Shown here piece by piece: positions 7,243 through 64,000 of a DNA stretch of 64,000 bases. This DNA comes from an uncultured Bacilli bacterium (GTDB taxonomy: Bacteria > Bacillota_I > Bacilli_A > RF39 > UBA660). The position numbers and the translations under genes were made by a program. The notes beneath the pieces are model-generated. The model did no database searches. It saw only the letters and a list, made by a program, of their open reading frames with translations, and was not told the DNA's origin. The stretch spans positions 16,385-80,384 of the forward strand of contig CALVQK010000005.1 of NCBI GenBank assembly GCA_944358305.1, written 5' to 3'. Position 1 is the first letter of the stretch; each line of letters starts with the position of its first letter.

Positions 7243-9006
7243 GTGTTAGTCTTTATTAATATTATAGAGGAAGAAGGAGAGGTAAAAGTGAAAAGACGTG
7301 AGAATGTAGTAATAATAGTAATATTAGTGTTAATGCTAGTAGCAATAATAGGTGTAAGTTATGCAGCTTTTAGCTTTAGTCAGCAAGGTAATACACCAAA
7401 TACAATAACAACAGGATCAATAACAATGACATATACAGAAAGTGATAATAAAATAAGTTTGAATGGGGCCTTACCAACAACAGATAAGACAGGAACAGTA
7501 AGATTAACAGCAGGAGAATATTTTGATTTTAATGTTTCAAGTCAAATAACAGGTGATGTAAATATCAATTATGAGATAAGCGCAAAAGAAGTAGGAGATG
7601 GGACGATAGACGGTTCTAATATCAAACTTTATCTAACCAAACTTAATGATGATGGAACTGAAGAAGCCCTAATGGTACCAGAAGTATATAATGTAGAGGC
7701 TAATGCTAATGATTATACAGGTCGTCCTTCAGGAGAGATGAGTTTATATACAAGTAGCATGAACTCTAGTGAATCTAATAATTATAGACTTAGAATGTAT
7801 GTAGATGAAGGATATAATCCTCAAGGAGATGGAGGTAACCTAACCTTTACAGTACAGATAAATGTGTATGGAAAAGCAGGGGACAAGTATGTACCTGAGA
7901 CAACACAAGATATACTTGAAGATAATGAAGTACAAGTAGAAAAAACGCAGATGTTTGATTATGCCAGTAATGGTAGTTATTTAGAGTCTTTTACACAGCA
8001 AGCACCTCAATATGGAACTGATCCTAGTCAGATTACTAGTGGTGTTTATAGTATAGAAGATGCAGATGGAACAAGTTATTATTATAGAGGAAATGTAACA
8101 AATAATAATGTTCAATTCGGCGAATATACAGAAGATTATTATGTATATGATGATGGATATGGTTCTTATTATCAAAGCTTAGAAAGTTGTTTAGAAGCTA
8201 ATGGTGGTAGTGCAGATTGTACTCGAGTTAAGTTAGCGTCAGCTGGTGATAAAATGTACTGGAAGATAGTAAGAGTAAATGGGGATGGAAGCTTAAGACT
8301 AATATATAATGGAACAAGTGCAACACCTGATTTTAGTGATTTAGCTCATTCGTATGCAGTAGGAATAGCACCATATAATTTAGAGTATAACGATCCAAAA
8401 TATGCAGGATATACTTATGACAATGGAACAGATAGTTTTGCAAAAAGAGAAGTAGATACCTGGTACGAAAATTCCTTAGGAGATACAATATATGATAGTA
8501 AGGTAATGGGTGGAAGATTCTGTAGTGATAGTAGTGGCTATAAACTAGCTAGTGAATATGACTTAAATCCAGTTCTATTTGGAGGAGATATAGAAGGTAT
8601 ATATTTGTATTCAAGTTGGGGTGAAAGATTAGGAGGAAGAGTAAAAAATAGTTTTACAGTTAATACTCCGACATTGAGTTGCCCAGATACAGATGAAACA
8701 TATGGAGGAAGTTATAGACTAAAAGCGGGTCTTATTACAGCAGATGAGTTAGCTTTAGCAGGAGAAAGTTTTGGAGTTGTAGGCAATAGTTATTTAAATC
8801 CTGGCGATTTTGAAATGTATTACTGGACTATGACGCCGGCTGCGTTCACGTATGGTGATGCTTATGTTTGGAATGAGTATGTTAGTCTGTTTAACGGCAA
8901 TGTCGTCAACAGTGGTGACGCCGTGCGTCCAGTTATCAATGTGACAACTGATAACGGGTTTGCTAGTGGAGATGGAACTGCTAGTAGTCCATATGTAATT
9001 TCTTAG
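7243..9006 (+). CDS. Secreted TasA/camelysin-like protein with a SipW-cognate-type signal peptide and a DUF1566-like C-type-lectin-fold C-terminus carrying the DGR variable repeat. Likely true start is GTG at 7288.
   Basis: N-terminus KRRENVVIIVILVLMLVAIIGVSYAAFSF matches the SipW-cognate signal class (basic-hydrophobic-GxxYAxF). RBS aggagaggtaaaaGTG. C-terminus YYWTMTPAAF...NGNVVNSGDAVRPVIN resembles DUF1566-type DGR targets. VR lies at 8834..8932. Confidence 0.7.
   Translation: MLVFINIIEEEGEVKVKRRENVVIIVILVLMLVAIIGVSYAAFSFSQQGNTPNTITTGSITMTYTESDNKISLNGALPTTDKTGTVRLTAGEYFDFNVSSQITGDVNINYEISAKEVGDGTIDGSNIKLYLTKLNDDGTEEALMVPEVYNVEANANDYTGRPSGEMSLYTSSMNSSESNNYRLRMYVDEGYNPQGDGGNLTFTVQINVYGKAGDKYVPETTQDILEDNEVQVEKTQMFDYASNGSYLESFTQQAPQYGTDPSQITSGVYSIEDADGTSYYYRGNVTNNNVQFGEYTEDYYVYDDGYGSYYQSLESCLEANGGSADCTRVKLASAGDKMYWKIVRVNGDGSLRLIYNGTSATPDFSDLAHSYAVGIAPYNLEYNDPKYAGYTYDNGTDSFAKREVDTWYENSLGDTIYDSKVMGGRFCSDSSGYKLASEYDLNPVLFGGDIEGIYLYSSWGERLGGRVKNSFTVNTPTLSCPDTDETYGGSYRLKAGLITADELALAGESFGVVGNSYLNPGDFEMYYWTMTPAAFTYGDAYVWNEYVSLFNGNVVNSGDAVRPVINVTTDNGFASGDGTASSPYVIS
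8834..8932 (+). repeat. DGR variable repeat (VR) within the 3' end of CDS 7243..9006, ending in a GC-rich IMH-like 16-mer gacgccgtgcgtccag.
   Basis: 99-nt alignment to 9119..9217 with 18 mismatches. 17 of them fall at positions where the other copy has adenine. Confidence 0.85.
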
Positions 9007-9118
9007 ATAGAATGAGGCAAATGACTCTTCATTTGCCTCGGGGGATTAAACTGTATGTGATGCAGCGTTCTGCTTTGGTATGCTCGTTCGTTGGATCGCG
9101 GAGTGTGGTGAGTGTTCT

Positions 9119-9217
9119 CGCCGGCTGCGTTCAATAATGGTAATGCTAATGTATGGAATGAGAATGATAATCTGAATAACAACAATGTCAACAACAATAA
9201 TGACGCCGTGCGTCCAG
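9119..9217 (+). repeat. DGR template repeat (TR). It is non-coding, adenine-rich (AAT/AAC at the variable positions) and shares the GC-rich 3' 16-mer with VR.
   Basis: In-frame reading gives SPAAFNNGNANVWNENDNLNNNNVNNNNDAVRPD. AAY codons correspond to ACG/TAT/GAT/GTT/AGT/TTT/GGC/GTC/GGT in VR. Confidence 0.85.
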
Positions 9218-9400
9218 ATTCCTACTAAGGTTAGATTAGATCTAATGCCACCGCATTTTGTCGGCTACGGCTTGCAAATAGAGGAAGTTTGAATGGAAAC
9301 AAGTTTAATTCCCGGGTTATTCCCAAATATATAATATAGATGTTCATTGACTTAGAATAAAGTTCTTGGACTATCCCTATATTTCTTTTGATTATAAAAG

Positions 9401-9430
9401 ATAGTGCTAGTGTACTATCTTTTTTATATG
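9401..9430 (+). terminator. Rho-independent terminator about 185 nt downstream of TR (agatagt..actatct plus T-run).
   Basis: 7-bp stem, short loop, then tttttta. Confidence 0.5.
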
Positions 9431-9711: not shown

Positions 9712-10530
9712 ATGAATAAAGTACCTAGATTTATATCATTAATGGCAGATACAACTGCAAAAGCTTTAATTAAAGATGATAACTATAGATGGTTTTACGA
9801 AGACTTAATAAAATTCAAAACAGGTATTATCTTAAATGGTTATAAAGCAATAGATAATGAGCTTAATACTGGTAATAAAGTTAAGGATTATAGAGCAGAT
9901 ACTATATTTCTAAAAAATAATAATTTAGTTAATATAGAATTTAATCAATTTGTTTATGTTCATACTATGATAAAAAACATTAAATATGCTTTAAGGATGG
10001 CTGGCAACGGTTTTTTACAAGGAAAGGATTATTTTCATAGATTTGTAGTTCAAATAAATCTAAATAATAAGGTAATGAGTAGTAATGTCAAGAAATGGAA
10101 TGAAAAAGATTATAAGTTAGAAGATTATAAATCTAAATTATTTTTAAAAGATATAAGAATAATTACTATAGATTTAAGAAAATATAAAGGTATTTGTTAT
10201 GACGGTACTAATAAATATGAAGCGTATCTATCAATGTTAACAGCGGAGTCGTATGAAGAAATGGAAAAAATAATTGGAGATTTAAAGGAGGGTAAAATAA
10301 TAATGGAAAAGTTAAAAGAATTAGGATTAGATGATGAGTTTGGTATGTATTATGATGCTGAGATAGTACATAGAAAAGAATTAAACTCTGTAAAAAAGGA
10401 GGGCAGAAAGGAAGGTAAAATAGAGACAACTACTTCTATTGCTAAAGTAATGCTAAAAGCTGGGGAGAGCGTTAATAAAATAAAGGAATATACTGGCCTT
10501 TCAGAAAAACAAATAAGTATGCTAATGTAA
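9712..10530 (+). CDS. Rpn-family recombination-promoting nuclease/putative transposase (PD-(D/E)XK, YhgA-like), copy 1.
   Basis: C-terminal EGRKEGKIETTTSIAKVMLKAGESVNKIKEYTGLSEKQISML tail (DUF4351-like TGLS..I..L motif) and N-terminal FKxLF-like region. Confidence 0.65.
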   Translation: MNKVPRFISLMADTTAKALIKDDNYRWFYEDLIKFKTGIILNGYKAIDNELNTGNKVKDYRADTIFLKNNNLVNIEFNQFVYVHTMIKNIKYALRMAGNGFLQGKDYFHRFVVQINLNNKVMSSNVKKWNEKDYKLEDYKSKLFLKDIRIITIDLRKYKGICYDGTNKYEAYLSMLTAESYEEMEKIIGDLKEGKIIMEKLKELGLDDEFGMYYDAEIVHRKELNSVKKEGRKEGKIETTTSIAKVMLKAGESVNKIKEYTGLSEKQISMLM

Positions 10531-10714
10531 GGATGATGCAAAAAGTTAAAAAACTTGTAATTTTTAAAATTGACTATACTTTTAAAGACCAATATCTTAA
10601 ATTGAACTAGCCAATTAAGAAAATTGATAGGTATTTTTAAGATCAATTTATAAAATTGTCTTTTTGCAATATCTTTATGTATTTGATAACTTAATTGCAG
10701 AAAGGAGAAATCTT

Positions 10715-11545
10715 ATGAATAAAGTACCTAGATTTATATCATTAATGGCAGATACAACTGCAAAAGCTTTAATTAAAGATGATAACTATAGATGGTTTTA
10801 TGAAGAGGTTATTAAGTTTAGAACGGGTGTTGACTTGAAAGGTTATCAGTTAATGGATCCTGAACTTAATACTGGTAATAGGGGTAAAGATTATAGGTTA
10901 GATTTAATATTTATCAATAAGACTAAGTTATTTAACTTAGAATTAAATAGGTTTGTTTATCCACATACCTTTATTAAAAGTCTTAAATATGCTTTAAGGT
11001 TAGCGGGCAATGGTTATATTAAAGGAGATCAATATTATCAAAGATTTGTAACACAACTTAATCTAAATTATAAAATAATGAGTGAGAAAGTAAAATGGCA
11101 AAACTCGAGAGATTATAAGTTAGAAGACTGTAAATACAAAGATAAATTAAAAGATATAAGAGTATTAACAACAAATTTATTAGATTATAAGGGAATAGTT
11201 TATGATGGTACTAATAAATATGAAACATATTTATCAATGTTAACAGCTGAATCATATGAAGAAATGGAGAAAATAATTGGAGATTTAAAGGAGGGTAAAA
11301 TAATTATGGAAAAGTTAAAAGAATTGGGACTTGATGATGAGTTTGGTGCAATATATGATGAAGAGATAGTACATAAGATGGAGATAAACTCTGCTCGAAG
11401 TGATGGCAGAAAAGAAGGAAGAAAGGAAGGCAAAATAGAGACAACTACTTCTATTGCTAAAGTAATGTTAAAAGCTGGAGAGAGTGTTAATAAAATAAAA
11501 GAGTATACAGGCCTTTCAGAAAAACAAATAAGTATGCTAATATAG
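10715..11545 (+). CDS. Rpn-family nuclease/putative transposase, copy 2. The true start is the second M; the ORF track start at 10664 lies in the duplicated leader.
   Basis: Same N-terminus MNKVPRFISLMADTTAKALIKDDNYRWFYE and the same C-terminal TGLSEKQISML tail. Confidence 0.65.
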   Translation: MNKVPRFISLMADTTAKALIKDDNYRWFYEEVIKFRTGVDLKGYQLMDPELNTGNRGKDYRLDLIFINKTKLFNLELNRFVYPHTFIKSLKYALRLAGNGYIKGDQYYQRFVTQLNLNYKIMSEKVKWQNSRDYKLEDCKYKDKLKDIRVLTTNLLDYKGIVYDGTNKYETYLSMLTAESYEEMEKIIGDLKEGKIIMEKLKELGLDDEFGAIYDEEIVHKMEINSARSDGRKEGRKEGKIETTTSIAKVMLKAGESVNKIKEYTGLSEKQISMLI

Positions 11546-11654
11546 GTTAATAGTGTTTCTATTCTTTAAAAGTTTTAAATATTTCTTTATAATTTGTAAG
11601 AATATAGAGGAGATAGCGAATATATATTTAAAATAGCTAAAGGAGATAATTATT

Positions 11655-11882
11655 ATGGAAAAGTTAAAAGAATTAGGACTTGATGATGAGTTTGGTATGT
11701 ATTATGATGCTGAGATAGTACATAGAAAAGAATTAAACTCTGTAAAAAAGGAGGGCAGAAAGGAAGGCAAAATAGAGACAACTACTTCTATTGCTAAGAA
11801 TCTTCTTAATATGGGTCTTTCTAAACAAGATGTAATGAAAGCGACAGGTTTATCTAAGAAACAACTAACTATGTTAATGTAG
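11655..11882 (+). pseudogene. Truncated third Rpn copy. Only the C-terminal ~75 aa (DUF4351-like tail) is retained.
   Basis: MEKLKELGLDDEFGMYYDAEIVHRKELNSVKKEGRKEGKIETTTSIAK is near-identical to the tail of copy 1. A terminator hairpin follows at 11908..11930. Confidence 0.6.
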
Positions 11883-12025: not shown

Positions 12026-12376
12026 TTGGTGGAATTTATGAAGAAGTATACACCTTTAAATATATATAATTTCTATAAAAGAGATTATGCTAAGTACTTG
12101 TTGCTGGTTAAGAAAAAAGATAAACTTATAACTTATAATACTGACGCTAAAATAGTATCTTATCTTTTTAAAATATATTATTTTGAAGAACTTAGTTTAG
12201 ATCAAAATTTGTTAACAGAGTTATTAGAACTTAAAGAAATACATCATTTTAATATTGCTGTAGTCGTCTCCTCTAAAATAAGAGAATATTATTGTTATAA
12301 AAATAGTGATTATTTGAAACTTAAAAATAATAGTAAAAGATATGTTAAAGAATTAGAGGTGATTTCTAATGGATAA
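12026..12376 (+). CDS. Hypothetical 116-aa protein, translationally coupled to avd (stop overlaps the avd start). Possible DGR accessory gene.
   Basis: Overlapping ORFs 12026..12376 / 12369..12728 / 12709..13824 suggest one operon. Confidence 0.35.
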   Translation: MVEFMKKYTPLNIYNFYKRDYAKYLLLVKKKDKLITYNTDAKIVSYLFKIYYFEELSLDQNLLTELLELKEIHHFNIAVVVSSKIREYYCYKNSDYLKLKNNSKRYVKELEVISNG

Positions 12377-12728
12377 GAATGACTCTTTTAAAATTATGAA
12401 GAATACAAAATTACTTGTTTTTGATGTAGTAGAATTTTCTAAGAATTTTCCTAAAGGAGAAGCGGTGTTAAAGAAAAATCTACAGGAAGAGTTATTTAAT
12501 CTTGTTAAATTATTAAATTCATATATTGTTAATAAAGGAAGTGCAAGAATTAAAGAAAAACATGTTAAAGACTTTATTGTTAGTCTTTCGATGGTAGATT
12601 TTTATTTTGAGTATTTATACTTAAATAAAATTATTAGTTTTAAAAAATATAAAGCTTTGGTTGATGATGTTATTACAATTAGAAAGCTTGCTTATGGAGT
12701 ATTAAAAAATGAAAAAGAGTTATCTTAA
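12369..12728 (+). CDS. avd: Accessory variability determinant (Avd)-like protein (four-helix bundle, 23S rRNA IVS protein family).
   Basis: 119 aa, basic. FSKNFPKGE resembles the KFPKxE(R/K) motif of Avd/IVS proteins. Immediately upstream of and overlapping the DGR RT gene. Confidence 0.6.
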   Translation: MDKNDSFKIMKNTKLLVFDVVEFSKNFPKGEAVLKKNLQEELFNLVKLLNSYIVNKGSARIKEKHVKDFIVSLSMVDFYFEYLYLNKIISFKKYKALVDDVITIRKLAYGVLKNEKELS

Positions 12729-13824
12729 ATATGATGTTTTAGTTGATTATGAAAAAGTATTATCTAGTTATAAAGATGTAGTTAGGAATACAGAACACAA
12801 AGAGAAATTGTTTAAATACAATTTGTTTTTGTCTAGTAATTTAATAGAAATATATAATGATTTAAAGAATAAAAAATATCATCATGGTAAATATAATATA
12901 TTCTTAATTAAAGATCCTAAATATCGGGTTATTATGAGTGAAAACTTAAATGATAAGATAGTTAATCAAATGGTTAGTGAACATATTTTAAAGCCAGTTT
13001 TAGAGCCTAGACTTATAGATAGTAATACTGCTACTAGAAAAGATATGGGAAGTAAACATGCCTTTAATTTATGCAAGAAGTATATTATGAAATTAAAAAG
13101 AGAAAATAAAGATATTTATGTTCTTAAGTTTGATATAAAAAAATATTTCTATAATATAGATCATGATATTTTGTTATCTAAGTTAGAGAAGATCTTTGTA
13201 GATAAGGATATTATGGCTTTATTAAAAGATATTATATATAGTTCTAATCTTGCTTATGTTAATAGGGAAATCGATACAATTATAAATAGAGAATTAAAGA
13301 AAGATTTATCTAGTTATCATAAAAGTGAACTTTTAAAAGTACCTAGATATCAATATCATAAAGGACTTGCTATTGGTAATGTTACAAGCCAAATACTTGC
13401 TATCTTTTATTTGAATAGAATAGATCATTTTATTAAAGAAAATTTAGGTTGTAAGTATTATATTCGTTATATGGATGATGGTATTATTTTTGATTATGAT
13501 AAAGAGAAATTAAAACGTATTAAGAGTGCTATTGAGAAGGAACTTTTAAAAGAAAAATTGGAACTTAATAAAAAAACAAATATTTATAAACTTAGTAATG
13601 GTTTTACTTTTATAGGATATAGATTTATTTTAAGAAATAATAAACTTGTTATTAGAATCAATAATAAAGTTAAGACTAGAATTAAGAGAAAGATTAAATA
13701 TTTGAGTGTTTATGATAAAGAGAAACTTATTAGAGTTAAAGCAAGTTACTATGGTTATATGAAAAGAGCATCTACTAAATTCTTACAGCATAAACTTGCT
13801 ATTAAAGATAAGCAAAGTTATTGA
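12709..13824 (+). CDS. DGR-type reverse transcriptase.
   Basis: RT motifs FDIKKYFYNIDHD, the DGR-specific GLAIGNVTSQ (I/LGxxxSQ in place of QGxxxSP), and YIRYMDDGIIF (YxDD). 371 aa with no maturase or endonuclease domains. Confidence 0.85.
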   Translation: MKKSYLKYDVLVDYEKVLSSYKDVVRNTEHKEKLFKYNLFLSSNLIEIYNDLKNKKYHHGKYNIFLIKDPKYRVIMSENLNDKIVNQMVSEHILKPVLEPRLIDSNTATRKDMGSKHAFNLCKKYIMKLKRENKDIYVLKFDIKKYFYNIDHDILLSKLEKIFVDKDIMALLKDIIYSSNLAYVNREIDTIINRELKKDLSSYHKSELLKVPRYQYHKGLAIGNVTSQILAIFYLNRIDHFIKENLGCKYYIRYMDDGIIFDYDKEKLKRIKSAIEKELLKEKLELNKKTNIYKLSNGFTFIGYRFILRNNKLVIRINNKVKTRIKRKIKYLSVYDKEKLIRVKASYYGYMKRASTKFLQHKLAIKDKQSY

Positions 13825-14456: not shown

Positions 14457-14480
14457 ATGGATACATAAGAGATTATGTTT

Positions 14481-14584
14481 AAAAAAGCTGGTGATTCCAA
14501 CCATAATAGGAACTTAAAAAAGCGGTGATTCCGACCATAACAGGAACTTAAAAAAGAAACTAGAGATGCAAAACTCTAGTTTTT
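14481..14584 (+). ncRNA. Type III antitoxin-like RNA. Two tandem direct repeats (35 nt and 34 nt, aaaaaagc(t)ggtgattccRaccataaYaggaactt) plus a partial third, followed by an intrinsic terminator.
   Basis: Units at 14481..14515 and 14516..14549. Terminator hairpin aactagag/ctctagtt with a T-run at 14558..14584, directly upstream of a ToxN-like ORF. Confidence 0.55.
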
Positions 14585-14646
14585 ATAAATTTCCTATTGC
14601 GAACATTTGTTCTTTTATGTATAATAATTAACTAAGTAAAGGAGGA

Positions 14647-15024
14647 ATGTTTGTGAAACAAGAATTACGTTTAGTTAAAATTGATTCTAATTATTGTGAT
14701 TATTTAAGAAAATATGATTCAAAAGTTCCATATAATTTTGATAGAAAAAGAAATAGACCTTTTGTAGGTGTATTGTTTGAAGTTAATGGGTGTAAATATT
14801 TTGCACCACTTGCTAGTCCTAAGACTAAATATTTAAAAATGCATAATAGTATTGATTTCTTTAAGTTGAAAAACGGAGAACTTGGAGCGATTAATTTTAA
14901 TAATATGATTCCTGTAACATTAAATAATGTTATTATGTTAGAACTTTTGGAAGATAATAAAACAAAAGAGGAAAGAATATATATAAAGATGTTAAAAGAG
15001 CAATTATATTTTGATTGTAAATAA
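14647..15024 (+). CDS. ToxN/AbiQ-family endoribonuclease toxin (type III TA / abortive infection). Likely start is GTG at 14653.
   Basis: KVPYNFDRKRNRPFVGVLFEVNGCKYFAPLASPK closely parallels the ToxN N-terminal core (KVP...F(I/V)G(I/V)..E..G.KY.APL.SPK). AGGAGG lies 9 nt before the GTG. Confidence 0.6.
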   Translation: MFVKQELRLVKIDSNYCDYLRKYDSKVPYNFDRKRNRPFVGVLFEVNGCKYFAPLASPKTKYLKMHNSIDFFKLKNGELGAINFNNMIPVTLNNVIMLELLEDNKTKEERIYIKMLKEQLYFDCK

Positions 15025-35381: not shown

Positions 35382-37214
35382 ATGAAAATGGGTAACCTAA
35401 GTAGTAAAGGAGTTACAGATATGACAAAGAAAAAATATATAGTAATATCAGTAGTAATAATATTAATAAGTATAATAGCATTAATAGGTGCAAGTTATGC
35501 CTTATTAACAATGACTATAGAGGGAGATAAAGAAATAACTCTAACAGCAGGAATACTAAAAGTTGATTTTAGTGAAGGTGATAATATAAGTATAGAAAAT
35601 AGCGCTCCTATGTCTGATAAAGAAGGTCTACAAACAACTCCTTATACTTTTACAGTAACAAATACAGGAAATATAAATGCTTATTACCATGTATCATTAG
35701 AAGAAGATAGTAATAATACATTAAGTAATTCAAATTTAAAGATGAAAATAACAGGAAATAATGGCTATGATAGTGGAGTAATAAGAGTAAGTGATTATGG
35801 GATAGGTTCTTTTGAAATAATAGGAGAAGATGTATTAGAGCCAAGCGATACAGTAACATATACTTTGTATATGTGGTTAGATGAGGATGCAGGGAATGAG
35901 GCACAAGGAACAATATATCAAAGTAAGATAGTAGTAACAAGTTATGATAGAGAACAGAATAGTCCAAATGCTCCAATGTTAGATGAAGGAATGATACCAG
36001 TAACATATGATGGAAGTAATTGGGTAAAAGCAGATAGAACAAATATAAATAATAGTTGGTATAACTATAATGATTTAATGTGGGCAAATGCTGTAACAGT
36101 ATCAGAATCAACAAGAAGCACATATAAGAGTGCAGCAGTAGGAACAGTAGTAAATATGGATGATATAGAGACAATGTGGGTATGGATACCAAGATATTCA
36201 TATACAATAGGAAGTGAAGATGGGACTAATTACTATGGAAAACAAGGGACATTTCTAGATACAACACCTACTCAGGCTTTACCAGGAGAAATAGATGTAA
36301 AGTTTGTTAGTGAGAATACAAAAGATAGAGGAAGTGCAAAATACATAGTAAGTGAAGGAATAAGTGATGATAGTTGGTATACGCCAGATGCTTTTACATT
36401 TGGAGATGAAGAGTTAAGAGGAATCTGGGTAGGAAAATTTGAGACAAGTAGCAGTAATCCAAATGAAGAAGATGGCGGAGGGAATACTACCGAGTTAGAT
36501 CCAATGATTAAACCAAATGTCACAAGTTGGAGAGGAATAAATGTAAGTAATGCCTTTAATGTGAGTTTAAAGATGAATAATAATGGAAATAGATATGGAA
36601 TAGAGAGTACAACCGATACCCATATGATGAAGAATAGTGAATGGGCACTAGTGGCATATCTTACACAATCAAAATATGGAAAATTAGGGAATAGTAATTT
36701 TACAGGTGCAAATAAAGAAATATATGTTAATAAGTCGAACGATTTGATAACAGGTTGTAGTTATGGAGCACCTAGTAATAGTAATACAGATTATGGATGT
36801 CAATATCAATATAATGTAGAGATAAATGGAACAGGAGCCTCAACCACAGGAAATATCTATGGAATATATGATATGAGCGGTGGTGATTGGGAATATGTTA
36901 TGGCAAATTATAATGATGTAGTAGGAGAAAGTGGATTTACTTCGATGCCTGATGCAAAATATTATGATAAATATACAAGTAATAATATAAATACAGCGTG
37001 TGATGGAAATATATGTTTATCACATAATTTGTTAGAAACAAAAAAATGGTATAATGATTTTCACACTTTAGTTTCTGAGGAGTATCCTTGGTTAGCAAAT
37101 GGGGGTAGTTGTATTCAGGATAATACAAATGCTGGAATATATGCTATTTCTAGAACTCTTAATAAAGGTGCTGCAAGAGATTCAACTTTCCGTTTAGTAG
37201 CAACAATAAGGTAG
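35382..37214 (+). CDS. Paralog of the DGR target family: SipW-cognate/TasA-like N-terminus with an FGE-sulfatase-like C-type-lectin-fold C-terminus. Likely start ATG 35421.
   Basis: LIGASYALLTMTIEGDKEITLTAGILKVDF matches the TasA-like N-region. C-terminus YGIYDMSGGDWEYV and NGGSC...RDSTFRLVATIR parallel the FGE-domain GNVWEW / RGGSW...GFR signatures. Confidence 0.6.
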   Translation: MKMGNLSSKGVTDMTKKKYIVISVVIILISIIALIGASYALLTMTIEGDKEITLTAGILKVDFSEGDNISIENSAPMSDKEGLQTTPYTFTVTNTGNINAYYHVSLEEDSNNTLSNSNLKMKITGNNGYDSGVIRVSDYGIGSFEIIGEDVLEPSDTVTYTLYMWLDEDAGNEAQGTIYQSKIVVTSYDREQNSPNAPMLDEGMIPVTYDGSNWVKADRTNINNSWYNYNDLMWANAVTVSESTRSTYKSAAVGTVVNMDDIETMWVWIPRYSYTIGSEDGTNYYGKQGTFLDTTPTQALPGEIDVKFVSENTKDRGSAKYIVSEGISDDSWYTPDAFTFGDEELRGIWVGKFETSSSNPNEEDGGGNTTELDPMIKPNVTSWRGINVSNAFNVSLKMNNNGNRYGIESTTDTHMMKNSEWALVAYLTQSKYGKLGNSNFTGANKEIYVNKSNDLITGCSYGAPSNSNTDYGCQYQYNVEINGTGASTTGNIYGIYDMSGGDWEYVMANYNDVVGESGFTSMPDAKYYDKYTSNNINTACDGNICLSHNLLETKKWYNDFHTLVSEEYPWLANGGSCIQDNTNAGIYAISRTLNKGAARDSTFRLVATIR

Positions 37215-39077
37215 GTGAATGTAATGAAAGAAGCAATAAAGAAAAATAAGAAATATATAATAATAGGGCTTGTAATAATAATTCTTCTTTTAATAGGAAT
37301 AGCATTCGCTTACCTAACAACAACACTACAAGGAGATAAAGAATATTTAGTAAGAGCAGGAACATTAGACCTAGTATTAGATGAAGGAAATGAACTTGCT
37401 TTAGAGAAACAAATACCACTTTCAGATAATGAAGGAATGAATCTTAATGGTTTTAGCTTTAGTATAGTAAATAATGGAAAGATAGATACAGATTATACAA
37501 TTTATTTAGATGATATGGAATTAAGTGAAGGAGAAAGTAGAATACCAGACTCTAGTATAAGATATAGTCTAACAAAAAATGATGAAACATTTATGACTAG
37601 GAATATGACAACCATGGGAAGTAATCCAAATAGAAGAGTAGACTTTGGAACAATCGCACCTGATGAAACTATTAACTACACCTTAAAGATCTGGATAGAC
37701 TATGATGCAACAACTGAAGAAGCAAGTGGTAAAGTATTTAAAGGGAAGTTAAGAGTAGTAGCAACTCAATCAGTAGGAGAAGCAGCAGGTACAGTATTAC
37801 TTGATAATATTCCAGAAGAAAACCAATATGATGATGGAACAGATACTTTTATTACAGGAGAAGATCCAGATAATTACATTTGGTATTCTGGTAAACTATG
37901 GAGAGCAGTATCAGTTAATAATGAAGCAAAGACAGTAAAATTAGTAACTCATGGGAATATAAGTTTTATGTCATATGATGACGATAGTACTGCTTTTGAA
38001 GGTAGTTATATGGAAGAGTGGTTAAATGATACAACAGTAGATGGTTTTCTTGGTAATTTAAGAAATTATGAAAACTTTATAGTAACCGATGCAAAGTGGG
38101 ATGCCACTGAGGATAATAGAGAATTAGGTAATATAACAAGACCTAATGGGACTACAATTGTGACAGATGCTGTAGGGTTACTTAACATATATGAATACCA
38201 GATGAGTTACAGAGGAGCTGATTATAGTAATGGATATTTAAATAATGGACTTGACTGGTGGATTATTACTCCTTATAGCTCAGTATATCCTAGATGCATT
38301 GCTAGTGGAGGAAATAGTAGTAATGTCTCTAATTTGAATTATAGATATGGAATTCGTCCAACAATAAATTTAAAAAGTGATGTAAAGATAGTATCAGGGA
38401 ATGGAACAGAAGACGATCCATATAGATTAATGAGCGATAGTGATGAAGACTTATCAGGTGTTAAGTTAAATACAAGATACAGTGGAGAATATATTCGTTT
38501 TGGAACAGGAGAAAATTATTTGTATAGAATAGTAAGTCATGAAACAAGAGGCTTAACAAAAATAACCAGTGCTGAACCATTAAAAGAAAATGGTGTATTT
38601 AAAACTATTTCTTTTGGCAATGATACCTATTATTCTAGTACTAATACTATTGGAACCTTTTTAAATGGTGAATATTTATCTTCTTATATCGATAGTAATC
38701 ATATTAATATGATAGAAGATAGTAGTACTTGGTATTTGGGAGAAGTGCGCAGTAGAGCGAGTTATAAACTAGCCAAATATGCTAATTATGATATGGCAAA
38801 CTATGCTAAGAGCACTAATGCAAAAATCGGTTTATTGAGATTTGGAGAATTAATGTCAGGACAATTCAATGTTTTTAGTAGTAATACTGATTATTGGTTA
38901 TTAACTCCATTTGAAAATGGACTCAATTATGTTAATGTGTATTCTGGGAATACAACAAATCCCAATCCGTATAATAATTATTTTGGTATTAAACCATCTC
39001 TAAACCTAAAATCAAATGTCATCATAATATCTGGCATAGGTACGAAAGAAGATCCATTTATTATTACTTTATCATAA
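37215..39077 (+). CDS. Paralog of the DGR target family: SipW-cognate/TasA-like N-terminus plus two DUF1566-like modules each ending in (I/V)RPxINLKSxV..SGxGTxxDP.
   Basis: LIGIAFAYLTTTLQGDKEYLVRAGTLDLVLDEGNELAL resembles the TasA signal/N-domain. WWIITPYSS..YGIRPTINLKSDVKIVSGNGTEDDPY and YWLLTPFENG..FGIKPSLNLKSNVIIISGIGTKEDPF repeats. Confidence 0.6.
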   Translation: MNVMKEAIKKNKKYIIIGLVIIILLLIGIAFAYLTTTLQGDKEYLVRAGTLDLVLDEGNELALEKQIPLSDNEGMNLNGFSFSIVNNGKIDTDYTIYLDDMELSEGESRIPDSSIRYSLTKNDETFMTRNMTTMGSNPNRRVDFGTIAPDETINYTLKIWIDYDATTEEASGKVFKGKLRVVATQSVGEAAGTVLLDNIPEENQYDDGTDTFITGEDPDNYIWYSGKLWRAVSVNNEAKTVKLVTHGNISFMSYDDDSTAFEGSYMEEWLNDTTVDGFLGNLRNYENFIVTDAKWDATEDNRELGNITRPNGTTIVTDAVGLLNIYEYQMSYRGADYSNGYLNNGLDWWIITPYSSVYPRCIASGGNSSNVSNLNYRYGIRPTINLKSDVKIVSGNGTEDDPYRLMSDSDEDLSGVKLNTRYSGEYIRFGTGENYLYRIVSHETRGLTKITSAEPLKENGVFKTISFGNDTYYSSTNTIGTFLNGEYLSSYIDSNHINMIEDSSTWYLGEVRSRASYKLAKYANYDMANYAKSTNAKIGLLRFGELMSGQFNVFSSNTDYWLLTPFENGLNYVNVYSGNTTNPNPYNNYFGIKPSLNLKSNVIIISGIGTKEDPFIITLS

Positions 39078-63313: not shown

Positions 63314-63503
63314 TTTGCATTTCTTTCTTTTATTAATATGAATTCATAATGATACTAATTAGTAGATATTTGTAAAGTAATAGTGATTATAATAATAAGC
63401 ACTATTTTTTTATTTGAATAATTGGACTCCATGTGTTAGAATTGTAATAGATAAAGTATAAGAATAAAAGATAAAGGTAAGCTAAATAGTAAGGAGAATA
63501 TTT

Positions 63504-64000
63504 ATGAAGAAAAAAGAGAATATAGTAATAATAGTACTATTAGTGTTAATGTTAGTTGCTATAATAGGTGTAAGTTATGCAGCGTTTAACTTTAGTCAGC
63601 AAGGTAATACACCAAATAAAATAACAACAGGATCAATAACAATGACATATACAGAAAGTGATAATAAAATAAGTTTGAATGGGGCATTACCTACAACAGA
63701 TAAGACAGGAATGGTAAGATTAACAGCAGGAGAATATTTTGATTTTAATGTTTCTAGTCAAATAACAGGTGATGTAAATATCAACTATGAGATAAGTGCA
63801 AAAGAAGTAGGAGATGGGACGATAGATGGTTCTAATATCAAACTTTATTTAACAAAGTTAAATGATGATGGAACAGAGGAAGCCCTAATGGTACCAGAAG
63901 TGTATAATGTAGAGGCTAATGCTAATGATTATACAGGAAGACCATCAGGAGAGATGAGTTTATATACAAGTAGCATGAACTCAAGTGAATCTAATAATTA
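63504..64000 (+). CDS. 3'-truncated paralog of the DGR target gene (window edge). The N-terminal 165 aa are about 95% identical to the 7288..9006 protein.
   Basis: MKKKENIVIIVLLVLMLVAIIGVSYAAFNFSQQGNTPNKITTGSITMTYTESDNK... Nucleotide identity to 7288..7780 is high throughout. Confidence 0.7.
   Translation, partial: MKKKENIVIIVLLVLMLVAIIGVSYAAFNFSQQGNTPNKITTGSITMTYTESDNKISLNGALPTTDKTGMVRLTAGEYFDFNVSSQITGDVNINYEISAKEVGDGTIDGSNIKLYLTKLNDDGTEEALMVPEVYNVEANANDYTGRPSGEMSLYTSSMNSSESNN

Follow-up and report, generated by a model that had tools for sequence, protein, structure and literature searches.

The DNA analyzed here is a 64,000-nucleotide stretch of contig CALVQK010000005.1 from an uncultured Bacilli bacterium, and this whole stretch is called the window below. 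It contains a diversity-generating retroelement (DGR) in which a target gene ending in a variable repeat (VR) is followed by an intergenic template repeat (TR) and by genes for the accessory protein Avd and a reverse transcriptase (RT). An earlier sequence-only reading, made from the letters of the window, had described the target as a SipW-cognate, TasA-like secreted protein with a C-type-lectin C-terminus of the DUF1566 type. The central features of the element are as follows.

7288..9006, forward strand: DGR target gene with a GTG start, 572 amino acids (aa); placed by homologue starts and by database protein P0001, which is 100% identical and also 572 aa long
8834..8932, forward strand: VR, encoding target residues 516-549; defined by repeat comparison and strain differences, and hypervariable across homologues
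9119..9217, forward strand: TR, with 14 AAY codons in the VR frame; defined by repeat comparison and identical in loci L085 and L086
12369..12728, forward strand: probable Avd accessory protein, 119 aa; phrog_3206 'Avd protein of DGR', E = 3.5e-6
12709..13824, forward strand: DGR RT, 371 aa, with IGNVTSQ and YMDD motifs; RVT_1, E = 7e-20; phrog_1423, E = 2.6e-76

VR, at the 3' end of the target gene, and TR, 285 nucleotides (nt) downstream, form a direct repeat of 99 nt. The two copies differ at 19 of the 99 positions, and 18 of these 19 mismatches replace an adenine of TR with another base in VR. The ends of the VR and TR repeats are each unique within the window, with a chance expectation of 0 matches. 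Both motifs of DGR-type RTs, (I/L)GxxxSQ and YxDD, can be read in the translation as IGNVTSQ and YMDD. The avd gene lies directly upstream of the RT gene and overlaps it, the typical arrangement, and the match of its product to NF033474 is weak and below the cut-off (21.3 bits, E = 2.5e-4, cut-off 80). The VR/TR pair, its adenine-centered mismatches, and the RT and Avd genes downstream confirm, beyond chance, that the gene at 7288-9006 is a DGR target, as the sequence-only reading had proposed.

To what extent VR changes in nature can be seen from related strains. Six database proteins, 97-98% identical to the target, differ from it at 13-16 residues, and apart from two substitutions in one protein all of these differences fall within residues 516-549. 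Locus L086, from another sample, is 100% identical to the window over 4818 nt, from the stop codon through the RT gene with TR included; its target gene differs from that of the window at 21 nt, all 21 inside VR. Twelve related loci with the same cassette have 10-23 VR/TR mismatches, almost all from A. Related loci were scanned with the TR of each metagenome-assembled genome (MAG), since TRs differ between species and a scan with the window TR had given almost nothing. In several MAGs, paralogues on other contigs agree with the TR of their own MAG at 95-100% of the positions that are not A, whereas the A positions are scrambled, and because these remote genes match TR in this way, one RT/TR appears to serve several targets. 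VR replacement is therefore shown to be adenine-specific, TR-templated, and ongoing in nature. Strains with identical cassettes but different VRs offer a good natural system for following DGR variation in the gut.

The longest open reading frame (ORF) at the target spans 7243-9006 on the forward strand and holds the strings quoted by the sequence-only reading: a basic stretch, a hydrophobic helix with IIGVSYAAFSF, and the C-terminal YYWTMTPAAFTYGDAYVWNEYVSLFNGNVVNSGDAVRPVIN. Its start has to be moved. The true start is most likely the GTG at 7288, 45 nt inside this frame, because the ribosome-binding site GAAGGAGAGG lies 5 nt upstream and homologues begin at the matching position. Close database homologues among the matches listed are mostly 550-580 aa and start at the position equivalent to 7288. 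Residues are numbered from this GTG throughout, and the gene divides into the following parts.

7273..7282, forward strand: ribosome-binding site GAAGGAGAGG, 5 nt 5' of the GTG start, from sequence reading
7288..7365, forward strand: predicted TasA-type signal peptide, residues 1-26 (MKRRE, an 18-residue hydrophobic stretch, GVSYA), with predicted cleavage SYA↓AF; based on the TIGR04088 score, the hhalign register, and motif conservation
7366..7887, forward strand: N-module, residues ~27-200, a predicted beta-sandwich and probable divergent relative of the TasA/camelysin N-terminal region
7900..8238, forward strand: middle region, residues ~205-317, mostly beta with a conserved cysteine; AlphaFold2 (AF2) predicted local distance difference test (pLDDT) 86-96 and conserved alignment columns
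8239..9003, forward strand: C-module, residues 318-572, a predicted enlarged C-type-lectin-like domain of the DUF6273 type with a GDGTxxxPYxI tail at its end

A first structure prediction used only close homologues (68-83% identity) and reached a pLDDT of 45; Foldseek on that model returned generic beta-sandwich matches, and it was otherwise not used. With distant relatives added, AF2 gave a pLDDT of 83 overall, a predicted template modeling score of 0.72, and a pLDDT of 93-97 over VR. In this model, residues 516-549 occupy the strands 512-521, 524-530, and 534-538 and the intervening loops, forming a beta-hairpin and loop region. The modeled fold of the C-module matches the solved DUF6273 domain at the N-terminus of an IgA protease (PDB 9qa6). 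The model confirms, at the level of predicted structure, that VR sits in a C-type-lectin fold, in agreement with the sequence-only reading. The middle region may be an extension of this lectin module.

The family to which the lectin domain belongs is a different matter. DUF1566 (PF07603), the type proposed by the sequence-only reading, has no sequence match to the target even at E<=10, and the terminal motif reads VRPVIN rather than the VRCVR pattern of a DUF1566 ending. The domain is also much larger than DUF1566, the C-terminal domain of Legionella Lcl (PDB 8q4e). DUF6273 (PF19789) matches the target at 14.7 bits (E = 0.028), below its gathering score of 23.5, and this weak match lies exactly over the VR region, at profile positions 129-171 of 172. 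Among 26 diverse C-modules, 13 match DUF6273 (best E = 3.8e-7) and no other family recurs. A paralogue in the window, at 37215-39077, passes the gathering score with 26.5 bits and aligns to the VR region. A search of PDB sequences with the C-module profile gave no match. From the structure model and the DUF6273 matches across C-modules, the lectin fold can be regarded as confirmed and its family, judged by profile matches, as divergent DUF6273-like, not DUF1566-like.

At the other end of the protein, TIGR04088 (SipW-cognate) is the top NCBIfam match of the isolated 49-aa N-terminus at 18.7 bits (E = 0.0015), narrowly missing the cut-off of 19. A motif at the end of the hydrophobic stretch, G-[VIT]-[ST]-Y-A-[AYV]-[FWY], is conserved across the family and shades into the canonical GGTYAWFSS and GASYAYFTT in distant members. 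We compared the N-module alignment by hhalign with a TasA reference alignment of genuine TasA-family proteins, all with PF12389. The two align at 93.3% probability (E = 2.7e-7) over 77 columns that include the signal peptide and the first strands, pairing TWA↓AFND of TasA with SYA↓AFSF, ASGTLDLS with TTGSITMT, and KDFQFENNGS with YFDFNVSSQ. A hidden Markov model iterated from the window N-module finds the relatives P0214 and P0260 (E = 1e-12 to 1e-13), and these two proteins pass Pfam Peptidase_M73 (PF12389) with 30.5 and 29.7 bits against a threshold of 22.5. Since TIGR04088 comes close to its cut-off, hhalign connects the N-module to TasA, and relatives pass the camelysin model, profile-level evidence supports the N-terminus as a diverged relation of the TasA/camelysin export module, with strict family membership unproven. 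Cleavage would then be expected at SYA↓AF. PDB sequences searched with the N-module profile gave weak archaeal pilin matches (E = 0.013 and 0.053), for which the hydrophobic helix is probably responsible, and the whole-family profile gave only chance matches to arginine kinases. Two other signals do not fit the target: that of type IV pilins, which the sequence-only reading had also rejected, as there is no G↓FTLxE motif (though some relatives carry one), and that of lipoproteins, as there is no cysteine.

Flanking genes of the element are housekeeping genes (priA, a sigma factor, a YqeH-like GTPase, frr, and pheST), their synteny is conserved across strains, and no phage genes are found among them. 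Because of these flanks, the DGR is considered chromosomal and cellular. Relatives in genome collections are gut MAGs of uncultured 'Bacilli' or 'Tenericutes', Candidatus Onthousia among them, and a single MAG can hold as many as nine loci. One relative's contig carries the sporulation genes SpoIIIAH, Germane/GerM-type, and GerE, and the window encodes an Fe-only hydrogenase and rubrerythrin; these genes make the description of the host as a sporulating gut-type anaerobe, offered by the sequence-only reading, a reasonable one.

Taken together, our results indicate, with a probability of roughly 0.78, that an active chromosomal DGR diversifies the lectin-like C-module of a TasA-like exported protein in uncultured anaerobic gut Bacilli related to Candidatus Onthousia. 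TR (9119-9217) would be transcribed together with the conserved spacer that follows it, and RT (12709-13824) and Avd (12369-12728) would copy it with adenine-specific errors. The resulting cDNA would replace VR (8834-8932) and randomize about 14 AAY-templated codons, corresponding to residues 521-543 of the 572-aa protein. The target would be exported through Sec and cut after SYA by signal peptidase I, possibly of the SipW type, and the variable binding face would be presented outside the cell. The most likely role of the target, which belongs to a large paralogous family of proteins of this kind, is that of a secreted or surface-displayed binding protein with a putative ligand-binding face under continuous variation.

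Several observations weigh against this reading. One of the 19 VR/TR mismatches is a T to G change and does not start from an adenine. The TIGR04088 score falls to 13.8 bits when the N-terminus is searched in a 221-aa context, the full protein has no match at E<=1, and among 51 diverse family N-termini only four match at E<=0.01 (best 1e-5). Once the signal peptide is removed, the hhalign comparison with TasA drops to about 30% probability (E = 5e-4), with the register unchanged. No Pfam or NCBIfam model of TasA or camelysin matches the whole protein or its N-terminal 221 aa (E<=0.1 and E<=10), and the target reaches none of the curated thresholds of TIGR04088, Peptidase_M73, TasA, DUF6273, or DUF1566. 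The SipW-cognate/TasA class named by the sequence-only reading is thus retained as a profile-level likeness in the TasA/camelysin style, but not as a membership that passes the TIGR04088, TasA, or camelysin threshold. Nor was a signal peptidase gene found in the searched DNA. The window has no S26 motif of the SGSMxP type, consistent with the earlier statement that it lacks sipW, and neither motif searches nor phmmer with approximate SipS and SipW seeds found a signal peptidase in the window and 80 related loci (1.14 Mb), searches that cover only a small part of any of these genomes and are silent on the rest.

How the protein is released or held at the surface can be read in other ways. One is that it is exported by Sec and processed by the housekeeping signal peptidase I, the SipW-cognate likeness reflecting shared ancestry of the N-module in an organism with no dedicated SipW. 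With S at -3 and A at -1, SYA↓A fits the ordinary signal peptidase I rule, and for this reason the exclusion of a Sec/signal peptidase I signal by the sequence-only reading was unjustified. The TIGR04088 score under its cut-off points in the same direction. In Bacillus, sipW adjoins tasA, and here sipW was found neither in the window nor in 1.1 Mb of family-member loci. However, the limited genome coverage of that peptidase search speaks against giving its outcome much weight, and family relatives do exceed the cut-offs for TIGR04088 (best E = 1e-5) and camelysin. We find this alternative possible, if somewhat unlikely.

Another explanation is an uncleaved signal-anchor. The target would then be a type II membrane protein whose beta-sandwich stalk holds the variable lectin at the surface, with no SipW processing and no TasA-like behavior. 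The model shows the 18-residue hydrophobic stretch as a single helix (residues 3-21), no gene for a signal peptidase was found nearby, TIGR04088 is missed by most family N-termini, and archaeal pilins, which have N-terminal membrane helices, are the best PDB sequence matches of the N-module profile, though weak ones. Small residues at -3 and -1, however, give the strictly conserved G-[VI]-S-Y-A-A-F at the helix end the look of a peptidase site, and hhalign places this motif in register with the known cleavage site of TasA, which is cleaved at A27↓A28. The hydrophobic region of TasA is also equally long. We consider an anchored protein unlikely.

It is also conceivable that, after cleavage, the protein undergoes donor-strand exchange as TasA does, building a fiber of which every subunit, or a minor or tip subunit, bears a DGR-varied lectin head. 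The mature N-terminus AFSFSQQGNTPNTITTGSITM aligns with the donor-strand region of TasA, and in the AF2 monomer the AFSFSQQGNTPNTITTGSITM segment has a very low pLDDT of 33-39, but a low-confidence segment is equally expected of a flexible tether. A complete stand-alone gene for the N-module only exists (P0166, 202 aa), as expected of a major subunit. Because some relatives join the C-module to type IV prepilin N-termini, filament display may be a recurring theme. Against polymerization, the similarity to TasA is limited to the first ~55 mature residues and the fold match is generic. We consider a fiber quite unlikely and its discussion speculative. An equally doubtful extension is that the N-terminus freed by cleavage enters the adjacent subunit to build an extracellular fiber or pilus-like stalk, with a shaft of N-module-only paralogues of ~200 aa that lectin paralogues decorate, some of the latter rewritten by one DGR in trans. 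If true, this would amount to a hypervariable adhesive fiber in a small-genome gut bacterium.

Finally, a prophage or phage-derived DGR with a phage receptor-binding protein as its target is highly improbable. In its favor, gut phages have DGRs that target lectin domains of the DUF6273 type (PMC10743442), and both RT and Avd have matches among PHROG families. Against it, housekeeping genes in a synteny kept across strains flank the element, with no phage structural genes among them, and the target has no PHROG match but a secretion signal and many chromosomal paralogues.

Having preferred a chromosomal DGR that acts on a TasA-like exported lectin, we list the remaining features of the cassette.

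9014..9039, forward strand: perfect 11-bp stem with a 4-nt loop and no T-run, just 3' of the target stop codon; DNA fold -12.5 kcal/mol, z = -6.6; kept in related cassettes
9218..9410, forward strand: non-coding spacer of ~190 nt, 3' of TR; most columns do not vary between species when four sequences are aligned (mean column identity of the whole alignment 86%)
9712..11882, forward strand: two tandem paralogous Rpn-family genes (PD-(D/E)XK, TIGR01784) and a 75-aa C-terminal fragment, between the TR spacer and orf116; TIGR01784 matches
12038..12376, forward strand: orf116 (112 aa as called), directly upstream of avd; conserved in 12 of 12 related cassettes

The hairpin at 9014-9039 is a candidate DGR target-recognition hairpin, or a terminator stem. 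Like this hairpin and the spacer, TR is conserved in related cassettes. No Rfam family matched the RNA region of TR and spacer, and the spacer at 9218-9410 probably forms the structured 3' portion of the DGR RNA. The usual gene order in relatives is target, TR, orf116, avd, and RT. Orf116 has no Pfam, NCBIfam, or PHROG match and may be an extra DGR accessory factor. The Rpn insertion, missing from all 12 related cassettes, does not belong to the canonical cassette. VRs still differ among strains with the insertion, so it did not disable the element.

A further observation concerns the RT gene in relatives. In two related MAGs (L001 12835-15861 and L023 3067-6087), an insert of ~1.9 kb breaks the DGR RT gene after residue ~260 and codes for a second RT with a distant relationship to the first (26-27% identity), as if a group II intron or a retroelement had entered the gene.

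The family of the target is large, with more than 5,300 matches in one search and 3,988 cluster representatives (50% identity) at E<=1e-3. Among the matches listed, none has a source name or a Pfam domain on record. In the search of representatives, the N-module (residues 1-200) is joined to many different C-termini. The C-module (residues ~320-571) recurs in giant proteins of 2,500-3,500 aa, with up to 13-15 matched stretches per protein, and in some relatives stands behind type IV prepilin (N_methyl) N-termini (P0128, P0223, P0175, P0202, P0241, P0243, P0245, and P0258 have repeated C-modules or prepilin fusions).

DGRs are common in gut microbes, and most of their cellular targets are 'hypothetical proteins'. 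Among cellular DGR targets, TvpA of Treponema denticola and LdtA of Legionella are lipoproteins with FGE-sulfatase-type lectin domains. Unlike these, the target described here has a TasA-like export signal followed by a beta-sandwich N-module, its lectin domain is of the DUF6273 type and about twice the usual size, and its cassette has the additional conserved orf116 and the Rpn-gene insertion. The profile-level likeness to TasA and camelysin lies in the signal-peptide architecture, the cleavage-site motif, and the first beta-strands, and the modeled N-module is a beta-sandwich of similar size. However, similarity is not detectable past residue ~93, the protein has a 370-residue C-terminal extension with the lectin domain, and no sipW or tapA is adjacent.

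DUF6273 domains were already known as DGR targets in gut phages (PMC10743442), where, in contrast to our target, the tentaclins among the tentaclin/target2 proteins have their DUF6273 domain N-terminal on a phage fiber. The DUF6273 domain of the Thomasclavelia ramosa IgA protease (9qa6) is likewise N-terminal and is not diversified, and protease constructs without it have comparable activity. The DGR machinery and a VR in a lectin fold are therefore standard, and DUF6273 as a target is published. The literature searched contained no link between DGRs and TasA, SipW, or camelysin, so a TasA-like front end on a DGR target would be new; the N-module/C-module family is unannotated among the matches listed. 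The present locus ties an active chromosomal DGR to this large family (the 3,988 representatives) with an apparently TasA/camelysin-related N-terminus. It identifies the variable head as a probable DUF6273-type lectin, the type shared with the T. ramosa protease, and offers a hypothesis for how the head is presented, on a cleaved, possibly polymerizing surface protein. By analogy, this suggests that the N-terminal domain of the IgA protease may be a ligand-binding module of the same kind.

Other members of the family lie elsewhere in the window. The gene at 35382-37214 pairs the N-module with a different C-terminal region, without a Pfam match, in which a GIYDMSGGDWEYV motif recalls lectin domains of the FGE-sulfatase type. 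In tandem with it, the N-module family gene at 37215-39077 contains two DUF6273-like modules, one of them above the gathering score. Neither gene matches TR. At 63486-63998, running past the end of the window, is the start of a paralogue whose N-module is nearly identical to that of the DGR target (MKKKENIVIIVLLVLMLVAIIGVSYAAFNFSQQGNTPN...); it may be a second, in-trans target of the same TR. In a related locus (L082, 7582-8609), the complete N-module-only gene for P0166 overlaps the stop codon of an upstream 139-aa membrane-anchored ORF, and the pair may be an operon of a shaft subunit and a partner.

Right after frr, a 34-nt tandem repeat in 2.3 copies (14479-14556) lies upstream of a gene for a ToxN toxin (14647-15024; Pfam E = 1.9e-32). 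The region from 14479 to 15024 resembles a toxin-antitoxin locus of type III, similar to ToxIN. Strain L085 has its toxN gene broken into two parts.

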